In this document: piece after piece, positions 50,019-64,000 of the stretch
Layout: every line of letters starts with the position of its first letter
Numbering within the stretch: position 1 is the first letter of the stretch
Assembly: GCA_963751455.1 (NCBI GenBank)
Contig: CAVVUN010000003.1
Location: forward strand, 1 to 64,000
DNA length: 64,000 nt
From: Nitrospirota bacterium
Lineage (GTDB): Bacteria > Nitrospirota > UBA9217
Reading direction: 5' to 3'
Notes under the pieces: model-generated
What the model was told of the DNA's origin: nothing
Seen by the model: the letters and a program-made list of their open reading frames with translations, nothing else
Databases searched by the model: none
Made by a program: the position numbers and the translations under genes

Positions 50019-50719
50019 AGACAAATATCCTTTTCAAGTAAATAATTTCGTGGTACCGTACCAATAACACTACGGCAGCCTGCGGTCATTCCTGCGGGAG
50101 AAAAAAAAGATGAAAATAGCGGTATTCGGAGACATCCATGGAAATATAGACGCCCTTATTGCCGCGTTCAATGAGATGCTTCGGATCAAGACGGACAAAA
50201 TGTACCACCTCGGCGATCTCGGCGGGTATGCTCCCTTCGTGAACCAAGTCGTGGATTTTCTGATCGAACACAACATCGAAGGCGTGCAGGGGAACTACGA
50301 TTATAATGTGGCGCACAACAGCGAACATTGCGGCTGCAAGTACGAGGACCCCGTTCAGGCGGAGCTTGCGGAAAGGTCTTTTGCATGGACCAAGGAGCAT
50401 GTTTCGGACAAAGGCCGGGAATACCTGCGCGACCTTCCTCTTAACCTTAATCTTTCAATTGAGGGCAGGAATGTAATCCTCTTTCACGCATCTCCGCACA
50501 AGAACAATCTCTACTGGTATGAGGACCGGCCGGAAAAGTTCTTTCATGAAATGGCGGATAAGGTGAAAGCCGATGTCCTGATCTACGGCCATACTCATAA
50601 GCCCTACAGAAAAGAACTTAACGGGAAGATCTTTATTAACGCTGGAAGTGTGGGAAAGCCCAAGGATGGCGACCCAAGGGCATGCGCTGCGGTTGTCGAG
50701 ATCGCGCAAGAAGGCATTA

Positions 50720-51827
50720 TTAACGGTCCCATAATAGAAACAACATTAAACCGCGTACTTGGTTGTTTCGTTATTGAAGTAAGCCCGCACACGGTCGGGT
50801 GATTTCTGGATAAATCGCAGGTGGCTTATTACCGCCCCATGCATTTGATCGCGCGAGGTAATAACCTGTTGGCCGATTGCGTTATTCTTCAGATCGTTCC
50901 AGACCCGCTCGTCGGGGTTCAACTCAGGTGAATAGGGCGGTAGAAAAAACAGTCGAAAGCGCTTCTTAATGGATTCAACAAATTTCGAAACCTTTTTGGC
51001 CTTATGGGCAGGATGCCCATCGACAATCAGAAAAATCATTCGATCAGTGCCATGAATCAATCGTTTGATAAACTCAATAAATTGCTGCGCTCCTACCCGC
51101 CCCTTGACGACCATGAAGCGGAATTCTCCTTGTGCGCTTACCGCCGAGATCATATTCAGACTAAAGCGCGCTCCTGTGCTGCTCACAACGGGAGTCTTGC
51201 CTTTTACTGCCCAGGTGGTGCCTGCATGATGATCAGAGCGAACACCAGCTTCATCTCCAAAGAATATTTGCGCCTTTTCTTTGCGTGCAAGGCTGCGAAT
51301 CTTCGGATATTCTTTCTCCAGCCAGCGCTGAACTTCCTCCGGTTTTTGCTGATAGGCCCGCCAGACAGGACGCTGCGGCGTCAGTCCCAGTTGCGCCAAC
51401 AAGCGGCACACAGAAGACTTGCTCAATCGCACACCGAATCTCTGATAGATTATCTGGCCGATCATCTTTGCCGTCCACAAGGCGTAGGTAAACTTCATCT
51501 GAAGAGGGTTCTTCATCGTCACGGTGCGATAGATCCATTGCATGGCTTTAGCGTCCAATTTCGTAGGGCGTCCGCCGCGCTTGCTTGCGTCCAGAGCGCC
51601 CCAGCCGCCGTTGCGGTATCGAGACAGCCATCCATAGATGGTTACCCGGTGAATACTCAGTGCTTTGGCTACAAGCTCAGGGCTTTGACCTTCCTGCACA
51701 CTGGCTACCGCACGTTTTCTCAGTTCTGTCAGAGTCTTGTGATCAAGTCGTCTCGCATCTGTCTTTTTCATGCGAAACAGCATAGCATAAGTGCGTAATT
51801 ATGTAAACACTATTTTGAGACAGTTAA
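50720..51827 (-). mobile_element. IS630-family insertion sequence (~1.1 kb) with TA target duplication
   Basis: Imperfect TIRs ttaacggtcccataatag / ttaactgtctcaaaatag; TA at 50718-50719 and 51828-51829. Confidence 0.93.
50746..51783 (-). CDS. IS630 DDE transposase (intact ORF)
   Basis: HTH N-terminus, FGDEAG, IVDGHPAH, LPPYSPELNPDERVW. Confidence 0.95.
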   Translation of the reverse strand: MLFRMKKTDARRLDHKTLTELRKRAVASVQEGQSPELVAKALSIHRVTIYGWLSRYRNGGWGALDASKRGGRPTKLDAKAMQWIYRTVTMKNPLQMKFTYALWTAKMIGQIIYQRFGVRLSKSSVCRLLAQLGLTPQRPVWRAYQQKPEEVQRWLEKEYPKIRSLARKEKAQIFFGDEAGVRSDHHAGTTWAVKGKTPVVSSTGARFSLNMISAVSAQGEFRFMVVKGRVGAQQFIEFIKRLIHGTDRMIFLIVDGHPAHKAKKVSKFVESIKKRFRLFFLPPYSPELNPDERVWNDLKNNAIGQQVITSRDQMHGAVISHLRFIQKSPDRVRAYFNNETTKYAV

Positions 51828-53482: not shown

Positions 53483-53950
53483 TTATTTTGCTGTCTCTAA
53501 CCTTTTATCAAACATGAAATTGTCAATTGTGTGAATCTTGACGTGTTTAATTTCCGGATGCAGCGGGTTAATCAGGACGTTAAATTCATCCGGCATGACA
53601 GCGGAAGGGACTCGCAGCAACAGACTCTTTTTATCCGTCGCCCATTGAGTGCCGATAGCAGCCAGCTTGAATGAAGGTGGATAGCGGCGCCAATTTTTGG
53701 GCAGGTCGGCAATATCGATTACTCTGGGAACAATCGACTTCGGGATTGAGATAGAAACGATCTTCCTCGAAAGCAGAAACTCGGCATTAGTCATATGGAC
53801 CAGTGCTTCAAGAGCTGCCAACGACCGGCTTTCCGCCGTATAAATGATCGGAGTCCCCTTATAGTTCCACCTGCCGCCGGCAAGTCTGGCTCCCTCTCCC
53901 GAGAGATCCTTTGCATATTTAACACGCGATACTCTATAGAGCATCATCAT
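53483..53950 (-). CDS. RES-domain toxin (NAD+ phosphorylase family)
   Basis: SGEGA..GGRWN, YTAESRSLAALE, LRVPS, NVLINP. Confidence 0.92.
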   Translation of the reverse strand: MMMLYRVSRVKYAKDLSGEGARLAGGRWNYKGTPIIYTAESRSLAALEALVHMTNAEFLLSRKIVSISIPKSIVPRVIDIADLPKNWRRYPPSFKLAAIGTQWATDKKSLLLRVPSAVMPDEFNVLINPLHPEIKHVKIHTIDNFMFDKRLETAK

Positions 53951-54399
53951 GCAAATATACCATGATCAATACGAGTAAGTTCATCCATGACGAGTTGAGT
54001 TCCTGTTTGCAAATTGACGAGTTCTCTCGGGGCTTTCCCGCCGAATGCCGTATTGGGCGTGCTAAACCAGCGCTGAAAATTCTCGCGCGATTCGAATACT
54101 TCAGCCCCCCTTACCATTAATCGTGCCAACTGAATAATATGCTCTGAGACCGAGGGATCGAATCTTTGTGAGTTCTTATATCTCTGAATCGTACGCAAAG
54201 TTATGGGGAGCATCGATGCAAGTTTATCAGGACCAAAACCGAAACAAACACCCAAAGAGACGAGAGCTGCCTTTGTAACTCCTTTCCGGCTCATTTCTAT
54301 CACATCCATTTCAGAGTCCAGATCTCTATCAAAAAGTTTTGAAAAAATCTCTGAAGGCTCTACTGAACAAACCTTTTTCAATACTTTAGCTGTCGGCAT
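53947..54399 (-). CDS. Xre/MbcA/ParS-type antitoxin
   Basis: RTIQR HTH, VF..WFSTPNTAFGGKAP..L..G..V.DELTRIDHG; stop overlaps the toxin start. Confidence 0.9.
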   Translation of the reverse strand: MPTAKVLKKVCSVEPSEIFSKLFDRDLDSEMDVIEMSRKGVTKAALVSLGVCFGFGPDKLASMLPITLRTIQRYKNSQRFDPSVSEHIIQLARLMVRGAEVFESRENFQRWFSTPNTAFGGKAPRELVNLQTGTQLVMDELTRIDHGIFA

Positions 54400-54420
54400 A
54401 TATATCTCCTTCCTGCCTAG

Positions 54421-54463
54421 CGACATCTGTCATTATATTAACGAATATTGTCGTAATTGTCAA
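54421..54463 (-). promoter_or_regulatory. Sigma70 promoter of the TA operon with TGTC/GACA repeats (possible autorepression operator)
   Basis: TTGACA(54463-54458)-17nt-TAATAT(54440-54435); gacatctgtc palindrome. Confidence 0.55.
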
Positions 54464-54818: not shown

Positions 54819-55988
54819 CTACAGTTCTTTCAGACGCACTCCGTTCACGGCTCGTATCTGCTTGCCGATAGAAAACTCTTCTTTGACTCGCGAAATCACG
54901 AGTCCCTTGATTACTGCGTCATCCCCATAATAGCTCCGCAACGCATGAAATCCCTTCTGCGCGTCGGCCCCCGGAGCACCCGTCAATTTCGCTTCAAGCG
55001 CGATGAACCTTCCGCCCTTCTCGACGAGGAAGTCGACCTCCTGACCGTCGTTCGTGCGCCAATAATAGAGAGGCGGATTCGTCAGTCCTTGCGCAAGAAG
55101 GGTCCGGTATATCTGATTGAATGCATAGGTTTCCCAGAGCGCCCCCGCCAAATGGGACTTTTCGATCTCCTGCCACGAGAACAGTCCCGTAAGGTGCGCG
55201 GCAAGCCCGGTATCGAGGAAGTATATCTTGGGTGACTTGACGAGACGTTTGCCGATGCTCCGATGATAAGGTTCGAGCAGGAAGACGATATGAGACGCCT
55301 CCAGCACGGAAACCCAAGCCTTGATCGTATTCGGAGCGACGCCGACATCGCGGGCGAGGTCCGAGAGCGAAAGCGTTTGAGCGGTTCTGGCCGCTATTGC
55401 CCGTAAGAAGCGGTTAAAATCGCGAAGATTGCCTACGCGCAGTATATTTCTCACATCCCGCTCCAGATAGGTTGCCACGTAGGACGGGTACCAGGTCATG
55501 GGATTGATGGAATCACCTGCGTAAAGCGCCGGGAATCCGCCCTTGGCGATATACTCCTCGACTGAAGGCATGCGCCGCGAATCCGCCAATTCCTGAGCAG
55601 ACAGCGATTGAAGGCTGACAATGCCGCACCGACCTGCAAGGCTTTCGGTGAGATTGTGCATCAAATTAAAGCTCTGGGAGCCGGTTATGAAATACTGTCC
55701 CTTCTTCTTTGTTTTATCCACGATCAGCTTGATGTGGCGAAACAGGCCCGGGGCATACTGTGCCTCGTCGATAATCGCGGGAGAGGGCAGTGAGTTAAGG
55801 AAGTCGGACGGAGAATTCTCGGCATCCGAAGCTTTGGCCGGATCGTCCAGGGTCACATAGGAATAGTCCCGGAAGAGATGGTTCAGGATGCTGGTCTTGC
55901 CGACCTGACGCGCGCCGGTAACGAATACGACAGGAAACAGGCGTGAAAAATCCCGAATCACGGTTTCCGCATTTCTTGTTATCCACAT
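54819..55988 (-). CDS. AAA_14 + DUF4143 ATP-binding protein
   Basis: GARQVGKT, IIDEAQ, TGSQ, ESLAGR, GGFP, KSPKIYFLDTG, EVDF..EAK. Confidence 0.9.
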   Translation of the reverse strand: MWITRNAETVIRDFSRLFPVVFVTGARQVGKTSILNHLFRDYSYVTLDDPAKASDAENSPSDFLNSLPSPAIIDEAQYAPGLFRHIKLIVDKTKKKGQYFITGSQSFNLMHNLTESLAGRCGIVSLQSLSAQELADSRRMPSVEEYIAKGGFPALYAGDSINPMTWYPSYVATYLERDVRNILRVGNLRDFNRFLRAIAARTAQTLSLSDLARDVGVAPNTIKAWVSVLEASHIVFLLEPYHRSIGKRLVKSPKIYFLDTGLAAHLTGLFSWQEIEKSHLAGALWETYAFNQIYRTLLAQGLTNPPLYYWRTNDGQEVDFLVEKGGRFIALEAKLTGAPGADAQKGFHALRSYYGDDAVIKGLVISRVKEEFSIGKQIRAVNGVRLKEL

Positions 55989-56238
55989 GCGGATATTATG
56001 CAATTGAATTGCAAAATTGTCAAGACCTTGCACTATCGAGAGCATGATCTATCGGGGATGCAAACAGGAAGCCGTGATTCGTTGACGTCGATAGTGAGCC
56101 CTTGCCGGCATATTGTCAACAGCAAAGATTCGACCCCTTATTTTTTCCGTGGAGGGGAAGATACAAAAGCAGCCTGAAACAGATCGGCCGGAAGGAGCGA
56201 TCCTTCCGGCCGTAGTATTCTTGTTCGTGTTCCCTCTC

Positions 56239-56697
56239 TTACGCGGCAATGTCCTCAGGGATCTCGGGTTCAACGAGCTTGGTAAGGAGCGTGAGCGAGT
56301 CCTCCCACCCGAGATAGCAGGCATCAACCGGAATCACGGCAGGAATGCCCTCCTGCACGATGTTCACTTCGGTTCCCACTGAGACCTTTTTGAGCTGCAC
56401 CGTAGTCCGCATCTCACCTTCCAGACCCGGATCGTCGAACTTGTCCGTGTAAACCAGTCGCTCGTTCGGGACCAGTTCGATGAACTCGCCATGGAACGAA
56501 TGGCTCTTGCCTGTCGTAAAGTTGGTGAACGACATGCGGTAGGTCCCTCCCTTCTTCGGTTCCAGCTGGTGGACCTTTCCCGTGAATCCGTCCGGCGGCA
56601 GCCATTTGGCCATGGCATCGGCATCGAGGAACGCGCGGTACACCCGCTCAGGCGCGGCGCGCAGCACGCGATGAAGTTTTACAGTACCTGTCTGCAT
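56239..56697 (-). CDS. SRPBCC/AHSA1-family protein
   Basis: APERVYRAF..KWLPP, GGTYRMSF, LVPNERL, YLGW. Confidence 0.9.
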   Translation of the reverse strand: MQTGTVKLHRVLRAAPERVYRAFLDADAMAKWLPPDGFTGKVHQLEPKKGGTYRMSFTNFTTGKSHSFHGEFIELVPNERLVYTDKFDDPGLEGEMRTTVQLKKVSVGTEVNIVQEGIPAVIPVDACYLGWEDSLTLLTKLVEPEIPEDIAA

Positions 56698-56816
56698 GGT
56701 ATTTTCCTCCTTCCCATAAGCTTCTACTACTATTTTACCTCTTTTTCAGGGAGAAGACGGCAGTGGGAGCGGTTGTATAATTGGATCAACAGAACGATCG
56801 AAAGGAGAACATCGCC

Positions 56817-57305
56817 ATGAAAAACATCACCCCATTCTTATGGTTCGATACCCAGGCCGAGGAAGCCGTAAAATTCTATGTCTCCCTGATCAAGAACTCA
56901 AAGGTCATTACGACCACCCGTTACACCGAGGAGTCCGCAGCCGCGACCGGCATGCCGGCGGGGTCCGTCATGACCGTCGATTTCCGGCTGAACGGGCAGG
57001 ATTTCATGGCCCTGAACGGCGGTCCGCAGTTCCCCTTCACGCCGGCCGTCTCATTCATGATCAAGTGCGATACCCAGGAAGAGATCGACCAACTCTGGGA
57101 GAAGCTGTCCGAAGGCGGGGAGAAGAGCGTGTGCGGCTGGTTGAAGGACAAGTACGGCGTCTCGTGGCAGGTTGCTCCCGCGATTCTGGATGAACTGATG
57201 AAAGACCAGGAGGGAGTGAAACGGGTCATGCGGGCAGTGCTCAAAATGACCAAGCTCGATATAAAGATGCTGCAGCAGGCCTACGATCGGCGCGAAGCAG
57301 CGTGA
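56817..57305 (+). CDS. VOC-family PhnB / 3-demethylubiquinone-9 methyltransferase-like protein
   Basis: ITPFLWF, ALNGGP, CGWLKDKYGVSWQV. Confidence 0.9.
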   Translation: MKNITPFLWFDTQAEEAVKFYVSLIKNSKVITTTRYTEESAAATGMPAGSVMTVDFRLNGQDFMALNGGPQFPFTPAVSFMIKCDTQEEIDQLWEKLSEGGEKSVCGWLKDKYGVSWQVAPAILDELMKDQEGVKRVMRAVLKMTKLDIKMLQQAYDRREAA

Positions 57306-57393
57306 TGGCGCGGTGCGAAAACATTCTTCCCTCCCCTGCCCTTTCATGGTCTATAATTTTTCCAGGGGAACATAACGCAGGAAAGGAGACGCG

Positions 57394-57951
57394 ATGCGAA
57401 AACTGACCGTATTCAACCTGATGACGCTTGACGGCTATATTGCCGGAGAAGACGGCGACATTTCCTGGCATAACGTGGACCAGGAGTTCCAGGAGTTGGC
57501 CGACAAGGCAGCGAATTCAGGCAACACGCTGATCTTCGGCCGCGTCACCTATGAGCTGATGGCATCGTTCTGGCCCACCGAGGAGGCCCTCAAGACCGAT
57601 CCGCTGGTGGCGCAGGGCATGAACAAGGCGGAGAAGATCGTGTTCTCCCGGACCCTGGACAAGGTCGTGTGGAACAATACGCGGCTGGTAAAACAGGACC
57701 TGACCGGAGACATAGGGAAGCTGAAACAGCAGGAAGGCAAGGACCTGACCATCCTGGGCAGCGGCAGCATTGTCGCACAGCTCGCGCAGGAAGGCCTGAT
57801 CGATCGATACGAGATCCTGCTCAACCCCGTTGTTCTCGGCAAGGGAAAGACCATGTTCGAGGGCCTGAAGGGCAGGCTGAATTTGAAATTGACCGGCACC
57901 CGGACATTTGGCAACGGGAATGTGCTGCTGACCTATGAGCCTGCCGGCTGA
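57394..57951 (+). CDS. RibD C-terminal / DHFR-fold reductase
   Basis: TLDGYIA, FGRVTY, GSGSIV, PVVLGKG. Confidence 0.88.
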   Translation: MRKLTVFNLMTLDGYIAGEDGDISWHNVDQEFQELADKAANSGNTLIFGRVTYELMASFWPTEEALKTDPLVAQGMNKAEKIVFSRTLDKVVWNNTRLVKQDLTGDIGKLKQQEGKDLTILGSGSIVAQLAQEGLIDRYEILLNPVVLGKGKTMFEGLKGRLNLKLTGTRTFGNGNVLLTYEPAG

Positions 57952-57974
57952 AGCGCGTAACAAGGAGACGGGAC

Positions 57975-58568
57975 ATGAGAAAGATAATTATTTCATCGAT
58001 GATCACATTGGATGGAGTAATGCAAGCACCCGGTGGGCCTAAGGAAGATACGTCAGGCGGTTTTAAATATGGCGGTTGGGTTGCATCGTATGGTGACGAA
58101 GTTTTTGGAAAGGCCATGGAAAAACAAATGAAACCTGCAGATCTTCTTTTGGGCAGAAAAACATTTGAGATCTTTGCCGGCTACTGGCCAGAGCATGAAA
58201 ATGGATGGCCGGGTATCAATGACGTCACAAAATACGTCATGTCCAGGACCATGAAAAAGTCAGATTGGAAAAACTCAGTTTTCCTCAAAAGCCTGGCAGA
58301 TATTAAAAAGCTCAAAAATTCAAAAGGTGCTGACATTCAAGTTTGGGGCAGCGGCAAGCTCATCCAGACACTACTCGAAAACGATCTAGTTGACGAACTC
58401 TGGCTCAAAATTTTCCCGTTGACTCTTGGTAAAGGAAAAAAGCTGTTTGACAAAGGCACGATTCCGGCAGCTTTTACATTAATAGAGGGTATTGTCACGC
58501 CAAGCGGAGTGATTATTGCGAATTACAAGCGAGCTGGAAAAGTCAAGACAGGGACTGTTGGAGCTTAA
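57975..58568 (+). CDS. RibD C-terminal / DHFR-fold reductase (second paralog)
   Basis: TLDGVMQAPGGP.ED, LGRKTF, WGSG, LGKGKKLF. Confidence 0.88.
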   Translation: MRKIIISSMITLDGVMQAPGGPKEDTSGGFKYGGWVASYGDEVFGKAMEKQMKPADLLLGRKTFEIFAGYWPEHENGWPGINDVTKYVMSRTMKKSDWKNSVFLKSLADIKKLKNSKGADIQVWGSGKLIQTLLENDLVDELWLKIFPLTLGKGKKLFDKGTIPAAFTLIEGIVTPSGVIIANYKRAGKVKTGTVGA

Positions 58569-58600: not shown

Positions 58601-59127
58601 GTGAACCAACGTCCTCCTGGTTGTCTCCAGGATGATTTGCATAATGGACGAAAATTTCGGGCTCTTCCGATCATGGACACCTTCACGAAAGAGTGTTTCT
58701 GGATCGAGGTAGACACATCGATCGGCGGAAAACGGGTGGCACAGGTTCTCACCCGCATATCAGCAGTTCATGGTCTACCTGAACAGATCCTTGTAAATAA
58801 CGGTCCCGAGTTCGTCAGCAACGCACTGGACGCCTGGGCGTATGCTCGCGGCATTAAGCTGCAATTCATCCGTCCAGGGAAGCCGGTCGATAACTGTTAC
58901 ATGGAAAGCTTCAACGGCAAGTTTCGCGATGAATGTCTCAACGAGAACTGGTTCATGAGTTTGGATCATGCTCGAAAAATCATCGAGAACTGGCGGATCG
59001 ATTACATGGAAGTCCGACCACACAGCGCTCTGGGAGATTTGGCTCCCGCTGAATTTAAGCTGCAAAAATTGTCAAAGATCGGTCAAAATCTCTAATTGCA
59101 TGTGGCACTACAAATGGGGGTAGCTCA
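58601..59127 (+). mobile_element. 5'-truncated IS3-family remnant (integrase core plus right end)
   Basis: GRKFRAL..D, NNGPEF (catalytic D changed to N), PGKPVDN..ESFNGKFRDECLN, RPHSALG; ends ...ggggtagctCA. Confidence 0.85.
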
Positions 59128-59417: not shown

Positions 59418-60878
59418 TCACTTCCACGAAGTCTTAATAGGTCGTACCCCGCCTCTGCGACCTATTTTGAATCCTACTCGGTAAATGTCAGGAATATTAA
59501 TCCGCTGGTCGGTTGTCGGATAAACCACACCCAAATCCTCAAGATCCATTAAAAGGGCGGTTATTCTCTTTCTATTATCAAATTCTAAGGAAAAACGGCG
59601 CGGCGGCAATTTATCTGATTTCATTAACGTCCCAGTAATGCCTTTCCATAGTGCTGCTAAAGTCGATATATCTAATGGAACCGTTTGGCCTTCTAGAGCA
59701 TTCAATAAGGGCGCTATCCATGGATAATCTTCATTCAATTCATCGACTCTTACTGCTGATGCTTTTGCGACACCATTTTTGATGCCTTCGTAATGTATTG
59801 GCACGACATGGTTAGAATACTTTATCGTTGTTTCCTCAGCAGCAGTTTTCATGGCTAGCAATAGACTACGGGGTGCTACATCCAAATTTCCATCGGCCAA
59901 GTGTACAGGAATCCATGAAAAGCAAAATCCTCTTTTCGGTCCAGTGCCCATCCATTTACCCGTTAAGACCTCAAGAGTTTGACGGATACTATTATCATTT
60001 GGATTTTCGACAAACAGTTTATCAACTTTTCTATATATCATCAGTTTATGAGTCGAACAAAACTTTCTAAATGACCGGCCAGCGTACTCATGATTCGAAA
60101 CCCATCGTATAACAATTAAAAACAGGTCTGCCGCTTGCCATTTGAGCTGGACGGCACTATGCTTTAGTTTTGAACTATCTTGAAACCGCCAAACTGTTTC
60201 ATCTTCTGCCATGTCCGGGCGAAGAAAAAGTTTCAGTCGAATTTGGCTAAAACTTCTAAGGTCCAATGATATTTCAAGAAGAGACTGAACCCAGAGACGT
60301 GCATCATCCCAGCTTTTTGAGAGCCTATCCAATGCATCAAAAATAATTAATATTGTCTTGTTTTCACGTTTCAGGCTTGCATCAAATTTAGAAATATTTT
60401 TTTCGAATGCGACGTCATTACCGCAGACCTTCACAATTTCAGGCCAGTCTGAAATACTTTTACCTGCTTGTTCATCGATATTTGCCAGATGTCGCGCAAT
60501 AACAGCTTTCCAAATTGCAGCACGTGAAAAACCAAGAGATAATAATTTCACTAATTCCGCTGGACTTGGATGGTGCGTACTTGAAAGATCAATACTGAAT
60601 CCGATTTTGACAATCGCATCTCCCAATTCCTTTGAACGCACTTGCTCAGCAACAAAACGTCTTGCTTGATTATTTCCGAGAACCGCAGTCCAAAAGCTTT
60701 TTCCTGCACCGCGAATACCTATTATTAATGTTGTATCTAAGGCTAACGCCTGCCAATGGGAAACAGGCACAACAATCCGGGATAACTCTGGCGGGTTTAA
60801 ACTTTCTTGCGCCTGGACGGATGGCAAGTCCGTCAGCGCCTGTCGCCATATCATTATTTCCTTCATGGTAGGTTCCAC
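59418..60878 (-). CDS. P-loop NTPase of unknown function (STAND/AAA-like)
   Basis: IIGIRGAGKS Walker A, LIIFDALDR Walker B, KLFLRPD; low GC; abuts the upstream gene. Confidence 0.8.
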   Translation of the reverse strand: MEPTMKEIMIWRQALTDLPSVQAQESLNPPELSRIVVPVSHWQALALDTTLIIGIRGAGKSFWTAVLGNNQARRFVAEQVRSKELGDAIVKIGFSIDLSSTHHPSPAELVKLLSLGFSRAAIWKAVIARHLANIDEQAGKSISDWPEIVKVCGNDVAFEKNISKFDASLKRENKTILIIFDALDRLSKSWDDARLWVQSLLEISLDLRSFSQIRLKLFLRPDMAEDETVWRFQDSSKLKHSAVQLKWQAADLFLIVIRWVSNHEYAGRSFRKFCSTHKLMIYRKVDKLFVENPNDNSIRQTLEVLTGKWMGTGPKRGFCFSWIPVHLADGNLDVAPRSLLLAMKTAAEETTIKYSNHVVPIHYEGIKNGVAKASAVRVDELNEDYPWIAPLLNALEGQTVPLDISTLAALWKGITGTLMKSDKLPPRRFSLEFDNRKRITALLMDLEDLGVVYPTTDQRINIPDIYRVGFKIGRRGGVRPIKTSWK

Positions 60879-62180
60879 TTATTCGTCCCCAAATCCCAGG
60901 CGCGAGGAATATAATTTGCAAAATTCTCCAAAAGCGACTTTGATCACTTCTTCTCGGATTGTTTCACCCATTCCCCAGCCTGGGAAACCGCGCAATTGGT
61001 CCCCAAAGTAAATTGGCGTTGGATAGTGCGGAGCAGCTTCGTCATTTAAAGAATAAGACACATCGCTCTTTTCCGTTTCGGTCTCTTCATCATAAATTTC
61101 TCGCCATGTATCATACGATAACTGGACGCAATGCTGCAAGGACTCATCAGTAGAGCCAATTTGAGCAGCCACCATTTTTAAGCGGCTGCGTAAATCATCA
61201 GACTGATGACCCCACTCAACCTGTCGTGATTTTGCAAGATGCTCAAAGAGCTTCGAATAACCTTTCCAGCTCTGCATCTCATCTCTCGTAAACAACATAA
61301 CCTCCGCGTCAAGTTGTGTAACTACAGCTGCGCCGAGATCGTGTAGACCTGCCCTAGAATCAATCAGTACCGCATCTGGAGTAAACTCTGCTCCTGCTAT
61401 CGAATTGACAAGATTTTGCAAATTTATTCCCAAGCTTTTCCAAGTATCTCCATCATTTGACAAAGATGTAAGATAAGCTCTGCCGACTTTAGCTACGTAT
61501 TCTTTTGTTTCACTTCCCCACGCTGGAACACAAAAGACAGCACCAGTTCCTTCTGAAAGAGCAGGAACCCGAAACCAATAATCATTCGTTAGCTTTTCTG
61601 GTGCGTTATCCACAAGTGCCTCAACCAACCAATCAGTCACACCGTATTTCGCGCCATCCTTTCCTAACAGTATGCCAAGGCCTGGCGCTTCCAGATCTAA
61701 GTCAACTAGAACGACTTTCTTCCCCATTTTCGCTAGATGACGTGCTAGTACAGTTATAGCTAAAGACCTGCCAACACCGCCTTTTATACTATATGCAACT
61801 GCCACAGGAATGCGTGATTTCCATTTAGAAGGTCGAAGCCAGTCTTGGTTAGTTAATAACCTGTCTACCAAAAATGTTTCCAATTCAGCACTAGGTAAAA
61901 CTACCTTATCTTCCGAAGCTAGAACATCCTCTGGATCGATAAGGTCTCTTTCTGATAGTATGACGCTATTCATTCCTGAACTATAAGGACCTAAATTACT
62001 ATGTAATTTTTCTGCAATTTGCCGACCAGCTTCAATGGATTCAAATTCCTTAACAACCACGGTAACTCTTCCATTTGTTTGTCGGACTATTGTGATTGGC
62101 GGCTTAACTTGGGCCTTATATTCAATAAGAATTCTTTCAACAATTGGAATCACATTGTCAAATAAAACAGAAGTTTTCAC
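60879..62180 (-). CDS. ParA/MinD-like ATPase with variant KGGVGRS Walker A and an extra N-terminal domain
   Basis: YSIKGGVGRS, VLVDLDLEAPGL, VLIDSRAGL; GTG start overlaps the upstream TGA. Confidence 0.85.
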   Translation of the reverse strand: MKTSVLFDNVIPIVERILIEYKAQVKPPITIVRQTNGRVTVVVKEFESIEAGRQIAEKLHSNLGPYSSGMNSVILSERDLIDPEDVLASEDKVVLPSAELETFLVDRLLTNQDWLRPSKWKSRIPVAVAYSIKGGVGRSLAITVLARHLAKMGKKVVLVDLDLEAPGLGILLGKDGAKYGVTDWLVEALVDNAPEKLTNDYWFRVPALSEGTGAVFCVPAWGSETKEYVAKVGRAYLTSLSNDGDTWKSLGINLQNLVNSIAGAEFTPDAVLIDSRAGLHDLGAAVVTQLDAEVMLFTRDEMQSWKGYSKLFEHLAKSRQVEWGHQSDDLRSRLKMVAAQIGSTDESLQHCVQLSYDTWREIYDEETETEKSDVSYSLNDEAAPHYPTPIYFGDQLRGFPGWGMGETIREEVIKVAFGEFCKLYSSRLGFGDE

Positions 62181-62578
62181 GAATTACTCCTTAACCCGAG
62201 CAAACCTGCTGCGCCGAGTATTCTTGCAGACCATTTTTTGTGGCTGTCACATACCTCTGTCTTGACGAAACCAGTTGCCTCGTATCGTTGCGCCACATTC
62301 CAATCGTTGAAAGGTCTGCTCGCTGAATTCAATAATTGAAAGACGCTTGGGTATGCCTTGGGATCAATATGGATAGATATTTTTTCCCATAACTCATTGA
62401 CGTGTACTCGAAACTGGCGGTCAAGCTCTTGATCAAGATAACATCGATTGCGCAAACAGCTTTTTAGAGCGCATTCAGTAGCGATTCCAAAAAGTTGATC
62501 CGCATTATCAAAGCGTTGTACTTCAAACAAACCCTTACCGTCCAAGTAATGTCGAATTGCTGCCTCAGTAAAGCTCAT
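62177..62578 (-). CDS. Small HEPN-like protein
   Basis: A..H..D..L..RFDNA..LFG.A.ECALK..H..L..W....RY pattern; contains RQFRVH (Rx4H). Confidence 0.65.
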   Translation of the reverse strand: MSFTEAAIRHYLDGKGLFEVQRFDNADQLFGIATECALKSCLRNRCYLDQELDRQFRVHVNELWEKISIHIDPKAYPSVFQLLNSASRPFNDWNVAQRYEATGFVKTEVCDSHKKWSARILGAAGLLGLRSNS

Positions 62579-62706
62579 TTTTACTCCAGTAAGCGCCCAG
62601 TTAATTTTAGGACGGCCACAATGAATATGTCGACATTCCCCTTAATGATAGAGCGACGATATTAAACCATGTTTAGCTATGTATGTCAACCGGTTAACGT
62701 CCTAAT

Positions 62707-63200
62707 TATAATTGGAGGCAGTCCCCGCTAATTGCGGGCAACGAGAGCTACTCTAGACTTGATAATCATATCAAGGCAGCACCTCAGCATACCAGAGCGC
62801 TTCAGCACTCTGGTATGTTTCAAGGAAAGAGGCCAATCTAACCTTGGAGGTGCTATATGAAATTATATGTCGGTTCAGACTTACATTCAACCAACACACC
62901 TTGGAATCAAGGATGCTGAAGGGAAACGGGTATTCGGGAAGAAGCTGCCTTACAATCGCGAAGTCATCCTGAGCACTCTCGAAGCCATACCAAAATGATA
63001 TTGCAGGAATTGTCGTCGAGTCTACCTACAACTGGTATTGGCTTGTTGACATACTGATGACAGAAGGTTACAAGGTGCATTTAGCTGATCCGGCAGAGAT
63101 TCAGAAATACACAGGATTAAAATATGATCGAGATGATGCTTTCTGGCTGGCTGAGATGCTGCGCCTGGGCATCCTGCCTGAAGGAAAGAGGGGCTTTAGG
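62707..63200 (+). mobile_element. Degenerate IS110-family element: structured left end plus a frameshifted DEDD transposase fragment (ATG 62857); right limit approximate
   Basis: MKLYVGSDLHS.., IVVESTYNWYWLVD.., KYDRDDAFWLAEMLRLGILPEG read across frames. Confidence 0.8.
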
Positions 63201-63298
63201 GAGCGACCGAAATGAACTATCGCTCTCTTGCTCATTTTTTCGCTGCCCATCGTTTAAGCGCCATTCAGTCGCGTTACTTCGTCATTATTCCCGGTGTC

Positions 63299-64000
63299 TC
63301 ACGTATCCTTAAGAAAAAGACTTCTAACCTTATTGGCTCCGATCAATTCCTTCAGCAGCGTATAATTTTTTTTCTCATACCTGATGCGTCCCGCCGGAAT
63401 CGCGGGACTGATCCTCAGCTCCTCGGCAAATGCCCGCACCGCCTGCGCTGAATAGCGGCGGGAAAGCCCGGCCCTGGTCCATTGCTTGGACGGTATGAGC
63501 GCTTCCGACGCGAGCTTGTCCGCTTCCTTCTCAACCCTCTCTGTTCCGGCTTGCGAGAAATCGTCAAAAAAAATGTCCAGGGCGTTTTTATCCAGGTGAA
63601 GGGCGATGTGGGCCAGTTCATGGCAGAGCGTGAACCAGAAGTGGTCCAACCGGTCGTAGCGCAGCGTCAGCGCGACCAAGGGGGACCCGTCGGAAAGTTT
63701 TATCGCGGCCCCATCCAGAAACGTCTTCGGCAGATGAAGTTCCACAAGAAAATGAATTCCGTTTTTGTTCAGGAATTCTTTGGCAAGCTTCGGGCCGGCA
63801 TCAAGGTAACTCAGCCGGACCAACTCGCGCAGAAAATCAGGGGTGATCGAGCCCGGCCGATACGGAGGCAAGGATTCCCGCATCGCAAGGGTGGAAACAC
63901 GGATGCGCCAGGCGGCCAGCGCGTACGGGTCCATGTTACCGCCGCTCCGGACGTGCTGCCGGTTCAAGGCGGGCTGCAAGGCTTCAACCCCGATCGGTCC
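63299..64000 (-). CDS. ImmA/IrrE-type Zn metallopeptidase domain protein (HigA-like HTH-peptidase); N-terminus lies beyond the window
   Basis: LPKTFLDGA, LTLRYDRLDHFWFTLCHELAH (HExxH), EKEAD. Confidence 0.85.
   Translation of the reverse strand, partial: GPIGVEALQPALNRQHVRSGGNMDPYALAAWRIRVSTLAMRESLPPYRPGSITPDFLRELVRLSYLDAGPKLAKEFLNKNGIHFLVELHLPKTFLDGAAIKLSDGSPLVALTLRYDRLDHFWFTLCHELAHIALHLDKNALDIFFDDFSQAGTERVEKEADKLASEALIPSKQWTRAGLSRRYSAQAVRAFAEELRISPAIPAGRIRYEKKNYTLLKELIGANKVRSLFLKDT

Follow-up and report, generated by a model that had tools for sequence, protein, structure and literature searches.

A HEPN, ParA-like and P-loop ATPase operon

The DNA analyzed here, which we call the window, is a stretch of 64,000 nucleotides from a Nitrospirota bacterium (assembly GCA_963751455.1, contig CAVVUN010000003.1, positions 1 to 64,000). 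It carries, on the reverse strand, an intact operon of 3.2 kb with three genes designated A, B and C. Gene A (62177-62578, 133 aa) encodes a protein with a predicted HEPN fold, gene B (60879-62180, 433 aa) a ParA/MinD ATPase preceded by an N-terminal domain of ~120 aa, and gene C (59418-60878, 486 aa) a second P-loop ATPase. A sequence-only reading of the window had proposed that these three tightly coupled open reading frames (ORFs), more AT-rich than the host genes, form a candidate undescribed defense system. The coupling is present in the DNA: the stop codon of A overlaps the start codon of B in the GTGA at 62177-62180, and the GTG of C directly abuts the stop of B (60878/60879). C may start at this GTG or at an ATG four codons further on. 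GGAG lies ahead of the start codons of A (ATG) and B (GTG), and a sigma-70-like promoter candidate (TCGACA-18-TAAAAT, 62604..62633, reverse strand), which is a consensus match only, lies 26 nt upstream of A; sites matching the promoter consensus numbered 15, against 8.7+/-3.0 in shuffled sequences. The composition is also as described, with a GC content of 42.5% against a genome mean of 51.4%, a level as low in 37 of 1,799 same-length genome windows, and with third-position GC of 33-40%. The cassette is present once in the host genome.

All three adjacent proteins match, nearly over their full length, the profiles of the phage defense candidate (PDC) PDC-M28 in PADLOC-DB 2.0: A matches PDC-M28A (E 2.1e-28, profile positions 4-127 of 138), B matches PDC-M28B (E 7.4e-111, 2-430 of 438) and C matches PDC-M28C (E 3.5e-139, 6-479 of 480). 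On these sequence matches the operon is almost certainly a member of PDC-M28. Its architecture is that of HINPO, a system predicted in a preprint (Li, Burroughs and Aravind, bioRxiv 10.64898/2026.10.19.760177), and PDC-M28 and HINPO, which we could match by description only, are very probably the same system; by description, A would be PA-HEPN1 of HINPO. Since the proteins match PDC-M28 and the architecture is that of HINPO, the claim that the system is undescribed fails.

The fold of A was assigned from its structure model (mean predicted local distance difference test score, pLDDT, 92.4). Pfam and NCBIfam gave no match for A, and profile searches of A and of C against PDB sequences returned nothing significant. 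The structural aligner VIA matched the model to 1ufb (Z 12.6, root-mean-square deviation 2.6, 112 residues aligned), to 2hsb (AF0298, Z 12.3) and to the sacsin HEPN domain (Z 11.5). Ranks 1-5 are HEPN-T-type chains with Z of 10.6-12.6, values close to those at which the tool advises caution with helical bundles, and the first clearly unrelated row has Z 6.6. The top 10 Foldseek rows are all HEPN or HEPN-annotated-type chains, none of which reaches E<=0.001. Because the VIA ranking, the Foldseek ranking and the ExxxK and RY motifs agree, A is, as modeled, a HEPN fold of the HEPN-T/AF0298 type.

The recognizable motifs of A are E35xxxK39, W93, R98-Y99, H113 and, in the insert that separates helix 2 from helix 3, H59. 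Among 138 homologues, E35 is kept in 135, K39 in 137, H59 in 136, R98 in 133, Y99 in 132 and H113 in 120, and toward the N terminus R9 is kept in 133, H10 in 123, D13 in 130, R22 in 119 and N25 in 124. Passages of Anantharaman et al. 2013 (PMC3710099) present HEPN-T as the nucleotidyltransferase-associated family and describe, for AF0298-type HEPNs, an alternative histidine in the helix 2-3 insert to which a catalytic role is assigned. A has the corresponding features, namely the retained arginine, a histidine in the helix 2-3 insert and the Ex3K motif. The near-invariance of E35xxxK39, R98, Y99 and H59, the last of which sits where the alternative catalytic histidine is found in AF0298-like proteins, makes it plausible that A is an RNase with a non-canonical site.

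B scores 174.8 bits against NCBIfam NF047398, the KGGVGR-motif variant AAA ATPase family (cut-off 90). In its model (pLDDT 87.3) the ParA/MinD fold spans residues 121-431, and VIA aligns it to FleN (Z 20.8, root-mean-square deviation 3.0, 244 residues aligned) and to MinD (Z 20.1). The Walker A motif is KGGVGRS at residues 133-139 (K133...R138), where the usual lysine is replaced by R138 in 151 of 152 aligned sequences. The sensor motif reads D160LD162LEAP166G167, with P166 in 152/152, and Walker B reads D274-S-R276. Across the same 152 rows K133, D160, D162, P166, D274 and R276 are conserved like R138, suggesting that the ATPase site of B is under selection and has not decayed. The N-terminal domain is the most variable region of B, with a mean column conservation of 0.42 against 0.57 in the ParA part. 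Modeled within whole B, it has the order helix-strand-strand-helix-strand. An Atlas search with B residues 1-118 gave no usable match, and a viral-structure fold search with B returned one ParA and nothing for the N-terminal domain. This order, together with a weak local profile match, would suit a dead minimal nucleotidyltransferase, which the domain may be; we take the assignment mainly from the HINPO preprint.

C carries the motifs G54-x-R-G-x-G-K60-S (Walker A), F180-D-A-L-D184 (Walker B), R220 and P336-R-S, as well as a conserved C-terminal basic motif, R474-x-G-G-V. Both Walker motifs are intact and conserved, and in C, as in B, the ATPase motifs hardly vary. The match of C to the NCBIfam Sll1717 family has E 1e-18, but its 67.7 bits fall below the cut-off of 75. 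Look-alike clusters in the Atlas carry ORC-CDC6-like (13% of members), nSTAND1 (19%) and Sll1717 labels, in each case on a minority of members, so that by sequence C appears to be a P-loop ATPase of the ORC-CDC6/STAND/Sll1717-like kind. Two of the four long hits are fusions: P0121 joins the whole of B to C (B 5-423, C 461-940), and P0122 is more distant. The P0121 fusion ties B and C together. The protein-level claims of the sequence-only reading, namely a small HEPN ORF, a ParA-like protein with arginine for the Walker A lysine and an extra N-terminal domain of ~120 aa, and a second P-loop ATPase, are therefore borne out.

Spread and surroundings of the triad

Of 7,998 candidates, 778 were relatives of B at E<=0.001; a single-sequence scan of the genome contigs found nothing, and the alignment-based scan of them gave matches. 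Neighborhoods were read from 160 loci with a B alignment, the best 80 of 532 genome matches and the best 80 of 448 metagenome matches. Where at least 500 nt were available on both sides, the full triad was present in 71/73 genome and 55/58 metagenome loci (126/131). In loci with room, A was found upstream in 136/139 and C in 143/145, the gene order was strict, and ATGA, GTGA or TTGA stop/start overlaps occurred at 121 of 145 A ends and 104 of 146 B ends. Loci from the viral collection had A, B and C in 14/14. Departures from this pattern were also seen. A TIR_2 (+S4) ORF directly follows A and B in place of C in one locus (L031:2089-3024), B and C occur with no detectable A upstream in L126 and L133, and one gene of the triad is frameshifted or split in L046, L052, L075, L162 and others, by decay or assembly error.

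Record titles place the relatives of B in Acidobacteriota, Myxococcota, Pseudomonadota, Chlorobi, Chloroflexota, cyanobacteria and spirochaetes, and relatives of B also lie on 17 plasmid records. Even so, full-length B was found in 0/60 relatives and C in 0/63 same-family genomes searched, and C was present in 3/300 same-phylum genomes. An apparent presence of B in 60/61 genomes was rejected as ordinary ParA/MinD cross-matching over ~40 residues, as only G000 gave a full-length match. The patchy spread, the low GC content and the flanking insertion sequences point to horizontal acquisition, which is likely, as had been proposed.

Some homologous copies sit inside other defense operons. A DUF1156 methylase and a PLD-helicase flank the triad in 8/160 loci, and in 13 it adjoins one of the two. 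Together with DUF499 and DUF3780, these two genes make up what we take to be the restriction-like system of Gao et al. 2020. In L045 the triad is inside a bacteriophage exclusion (BREX) operon, between PglX and BrxC/PglZ/BrxD; PglX is upstream of the triad in L084 and L144, and a type IIG-like methylase precedes it in four loci. A DarG/Macro gene lies upstream of the methylase in the DUF1156/PLD-helicase operons of L067, L070 and L092. Two Pseudomonas copies (L064:6466-8762 and L090:5092-8761) follow QatC/QatD and a 438-aa ORF that had no Pfam or PADLOC match at the thresholds used.

The copy in the window lies in a mobile patch and not in a classic defense island. Insertion sequence (IS) remnants stand on either side of it, as had been read from the letters: an IS3-family transposase remnant at 58601..59095 on the forward strand (NF033516, E 2e-36, partial and below the cut-off; rve_3), and a frameshifted IS110-family remnant in three frames at about 62857..63212, also forward (PF01548 DEDD_Tnp_IS110, E 8e-6, below the cut-off). 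The RES-Xre toxin-antitoxin pair (53483-54426, a library match) and the IrrE-type peptidase gene were likewise correctly placed nearby. The latter, a neighbor outside the triad, is a HigA-Peptidase_M78 gene (400 aa, PD-Lambda-2_B-like, PF06114) whose 3' part occupies 63299..64000 on the reverse strand and whose start lies past the window end; the whole ORF is L226:1300-2502, with a PADLOC PD-Lambda-2_B match of E 1e-140. Only a short C-terminal HigB remnant precedes it, so this PD-Lambda-2-like/HigBA unit (63299-64000 / L226:1300-2642, reverse strand) looks broken. A VapBC pair (PIN and VapB, L226:4663-5303, reverse strand) lies just past the window end. An AAA_14-DUF4143 ATPase gene (54819-56045, reverse strand) matches PADLOC PDC-S01 (E 9e-99), making it a defense candidate 3.4 kb from the triad. 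Between it and the IS3 remnant, 56239-58568 holds ordinary accessory genes (AHSA1, 3-dmu-9_3-mt and two RibD_C). Farther out, a full-length IS630-family transposase gene (50746-51783, reverse strand) appears to truncate a metallophosphoesterase gene (50110-50802) at its 3' end.

A proposed abortive-infection switch and its rivals

We think that the operon probably defends against mobile elements, and it would most likely do so as a nucleotide-gated abortive-infection switch, in which protection, toxicity and RNase activity are all predicted. Our ordering of the roles, with C as sensor, B as nucleotide switch and inhibitor and A as lethal RNase, is tentative, and so is the proposal of the sequence-only reading that two NTPases gate a HEPN effector, for which the HINPO authors offer a different scheme. 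We speculate that A is a latent RNase with a non-canonical HEPN-T site, formed by His59, Arg98 and conserved polar residues close to them. B would restrain A, probably by way of its N-terminal domain, the putative dead nucleotidyltransferase, much as happens in MNT-HEPN toxin-antitoxin pairs. C would sense the invader, either foreign DNA or a phage product, and act on B, its occasional fusion partner. A changed nucleotide state of B would then free or reshape A, which would cut tRNA or mRNA, and the infected cell would stop. We favor these roles because A is near-obligatory and keeps its polar residues, HEPN-T proteins pair with nucleotidyltransferases, B and C can be fused, and the RemAIN system of Salmonella offers an analogy.

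Several observations weigh against this account. The canonical HEPN Rx4-6H motif is absent from the end of helix 3 in A, where R98-YEATGFV has no histidine; among 132 homologues, a histidine at +5 to +7 of the arginine occurs in 15 and is missing from 117. With the histidine of RxxxxH missing, it cannot be taken for granted that A is an active RNase. The N-terminal domain of B did not align globally to nucleotidyltransferase profiles, and a local alignment to a profile of 29 minimal nucleotidyltransferases gave only a weak match (P 0.042, probability 1.2%), which keeps the register of strand 2-helix-strand 3 and lacks the catalytic aspartates. Effectors of such systems are usually swappable, whereas A never varies. 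No B match at E 1e-10 was found in 50,697 annotated phage records. Our literature search, which covered few subscription journals and no supplements, found no experimental paper on PDC-M28, HINPO, KGGVGR or sll1717.

The genomic neighbors belong with these points, as most copies adjoin housekeeping or unknown genes. We compared 50 of the 80 genome loci, those with 3 kb flanks, with 20 random stretches of one genome, that of the host. A bona fide defense gene lay within three ORFs on each side in 12/50 loci and 1/20 control stretches (P 0.09); with related loci collapsed, defense neighbors remained in 6/44 (P 0.42). These counts drop housekeeping or ambiguous cross-hits (SNF2 helicases in L025 and L043, a partial PDC-M26A in L050, cysteine desulfurase in L061 and UvrA in L081; in the control, those in L209, L215 and L225), and the raw counts at E<=1e-45 were 16/50 against 2/20 (P 0.07). 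Scan thresholds were 1e-30 or 1e-45, depending on the batch. Neighbors were taken as the longest non-overlapping ORFs, which were sometimes antisense frames, so the neighbor count is too low. Of a defense-island association, then, the copies inside DUF1156/PLD-helicase and BREX operons stand, while a general enrichment beside defense genes is not significant and is only suggestive.

The published HINPO model, as its section of the preprint gives it, arranges the same parts differently: C attaches to the DNA of the invader and seeds the assembly of B, the ParA, into multimers that are the primary effector and physically block infection; the N-terminal domain of B senses nucleotides; and the HEPN protein either serves only as a reserve effector for cell suicide or binds RNA without catalysis. 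The B-C fusions, the lack of RxxxxH in A and the variability of the N-terminal domain of B, as might be expected of a sensor, are all consistent with it. The model is, however, purely computational, and the presence of A in nearly all loci with so many polar residues kept is more readily explained if A is essential and catalytic than if it is a dispensable reserve. We consider it possible but rather unlikely.

A further rival, improbable in our view, sees the operon as a selfish module of the toxin-antitoxin or stress kind that descends from MNT-HEPN pairs, serves addiction or persistence and plays no genuine part against phages. In its favor, the HEPN family associated with MNT is HEPN-T, the window copy sits amid RES-Xre, VapBC and a broken HigBA, some copies are on plasmids, and the enrichment beside defense genes falls short of significance. 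Two conserved ATPases are nevertheless excessive for simple addiction, and copies occur inside intact defense operons and in viral-collection contigs. A ParA/MinD-like housekeeping system for positioning or partition, with an incidental helical partner, accords with the fold of B (Z about 20) but is highly improbable, given that no ParB was found among the flanking proteins scanned (as had been noted), that B has arginine at the lysine position of the KGGxGK expected in ParABS and has A and C as neighbors in the 126/131 loci with the full triad, that it was not found in the 63 same-family genomes searched, that its GC content is low, that its HEPN partner is obligatory, and that the HINPO preprint, in the part concerned, treats the arginine-for-lysine Walker A as the mark of a conflict clade, ConB2.

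Returning to the abortive-infection switch, a more specific evolutionary version of it is doubtful but worth stating: an MNT-HEPN pair may have been rewired for immunity, the nucleotidyltransferase losing catalysis to become an antitoxin that is tethered to a ParA switch of the Arg-variant kind, with a STAND-like ATPase as the trigger. If so, the HEPN protein would be a true RNase lacking RxxxxH, and the operon would offer the first tractable test of an alternative-histidine HEPN-T site and of whether ParA proteins of the KGGVGR clade hydrolyze ATP.

Comparison with known systems

As a discovery the operon carries little weight, since two computational studies have already catalogued the system. 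The present analysis adds three things: it connects PDC-M28 with HINPO, it assigns A to HEPN-T and names candidate catalytic residues, and it places some copies of the triad inside DUF1156/PLD-helicase operons. A compact, intact and widespread operon is also a good experimental target for the Arg-variant ParA in immunity and for RNA cutting by a HEPN-T protein that lacks RxxxxH.

Payne et al. (bioRxiv 10.1101/2024.01.29.577857) define PDCs as cassettes that sit within BREX, DISARM or type I restriction-modification systems, and released them for later functional work. Judging by protein profiles, we found no difference between the operon and PDC-M28. The name PDC-M28 appears in no main text searched, and the main text of the HINPO preprint has 0 occurrences of PADLOC or PDC.

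The HINPO section of that preprint (10.64898/2026.10.19.760177) describes, as computational predictions, a ConB2 ParA fused to an N-terminal inactive Pol-beta-fold nucleotidyltransferase, with a HEPN gene ahead of it and, behind it, an ORC-CDC6/STAND AAA+ ATPase that is sometimes fused to the ParA; enrichment in multicellular bacteria is another feature given for HINPO. The ConB2 hallmarks that it gives are the arginine in Walker A and a PG after the sensor DxD. The operon shares the gene order, the ParA with both hallmarks, the variable N-terminal domain, the upstream HEPN, a downstream P-loop ATPase that is putatively STAND-like, and the occasional B-C fusion. A HEPN active site and embedding in other defense operons are absent from that section.

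RemAIN of Salmonella Gifsy-1 comprises the HEPN nuclease RemN, the ATPase RemA and the immunity protein RemI, and has anticodon nuclease activity according to the relevant passages of its report (PMC13043305). It resembles the operon as a three-gene anti-phage unit of HEPN and ATPase, and appears to be the Salmonella ParA-HeH-HEPN example whose testing the HINPO preprint mentions. That example differs, where the preprint treats it, in having a ParA of the ConB1 clade and an HeH partner and in lacking a second ATPase and a nucleotidyltransferase-like domain. RemAIN is a functional analogue only.

The closest structural relatives of A are the HEPN-T proteins and MNT-HEPN pairs (AF0298, TT1696 and sacsin), which supply its best matches, and the gene next to A begins with a domain of modeled MNT-like topology that lacks the acidic catalytic residues. 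If this domain is indeed dead, adenylylation would not be possible, unlike in MNT-HEPN pairs. The operon departs from those pairs in two further respects: the partner domain is fused to a ParA, and a third gene, the ATPase, is present in nearly every copy.

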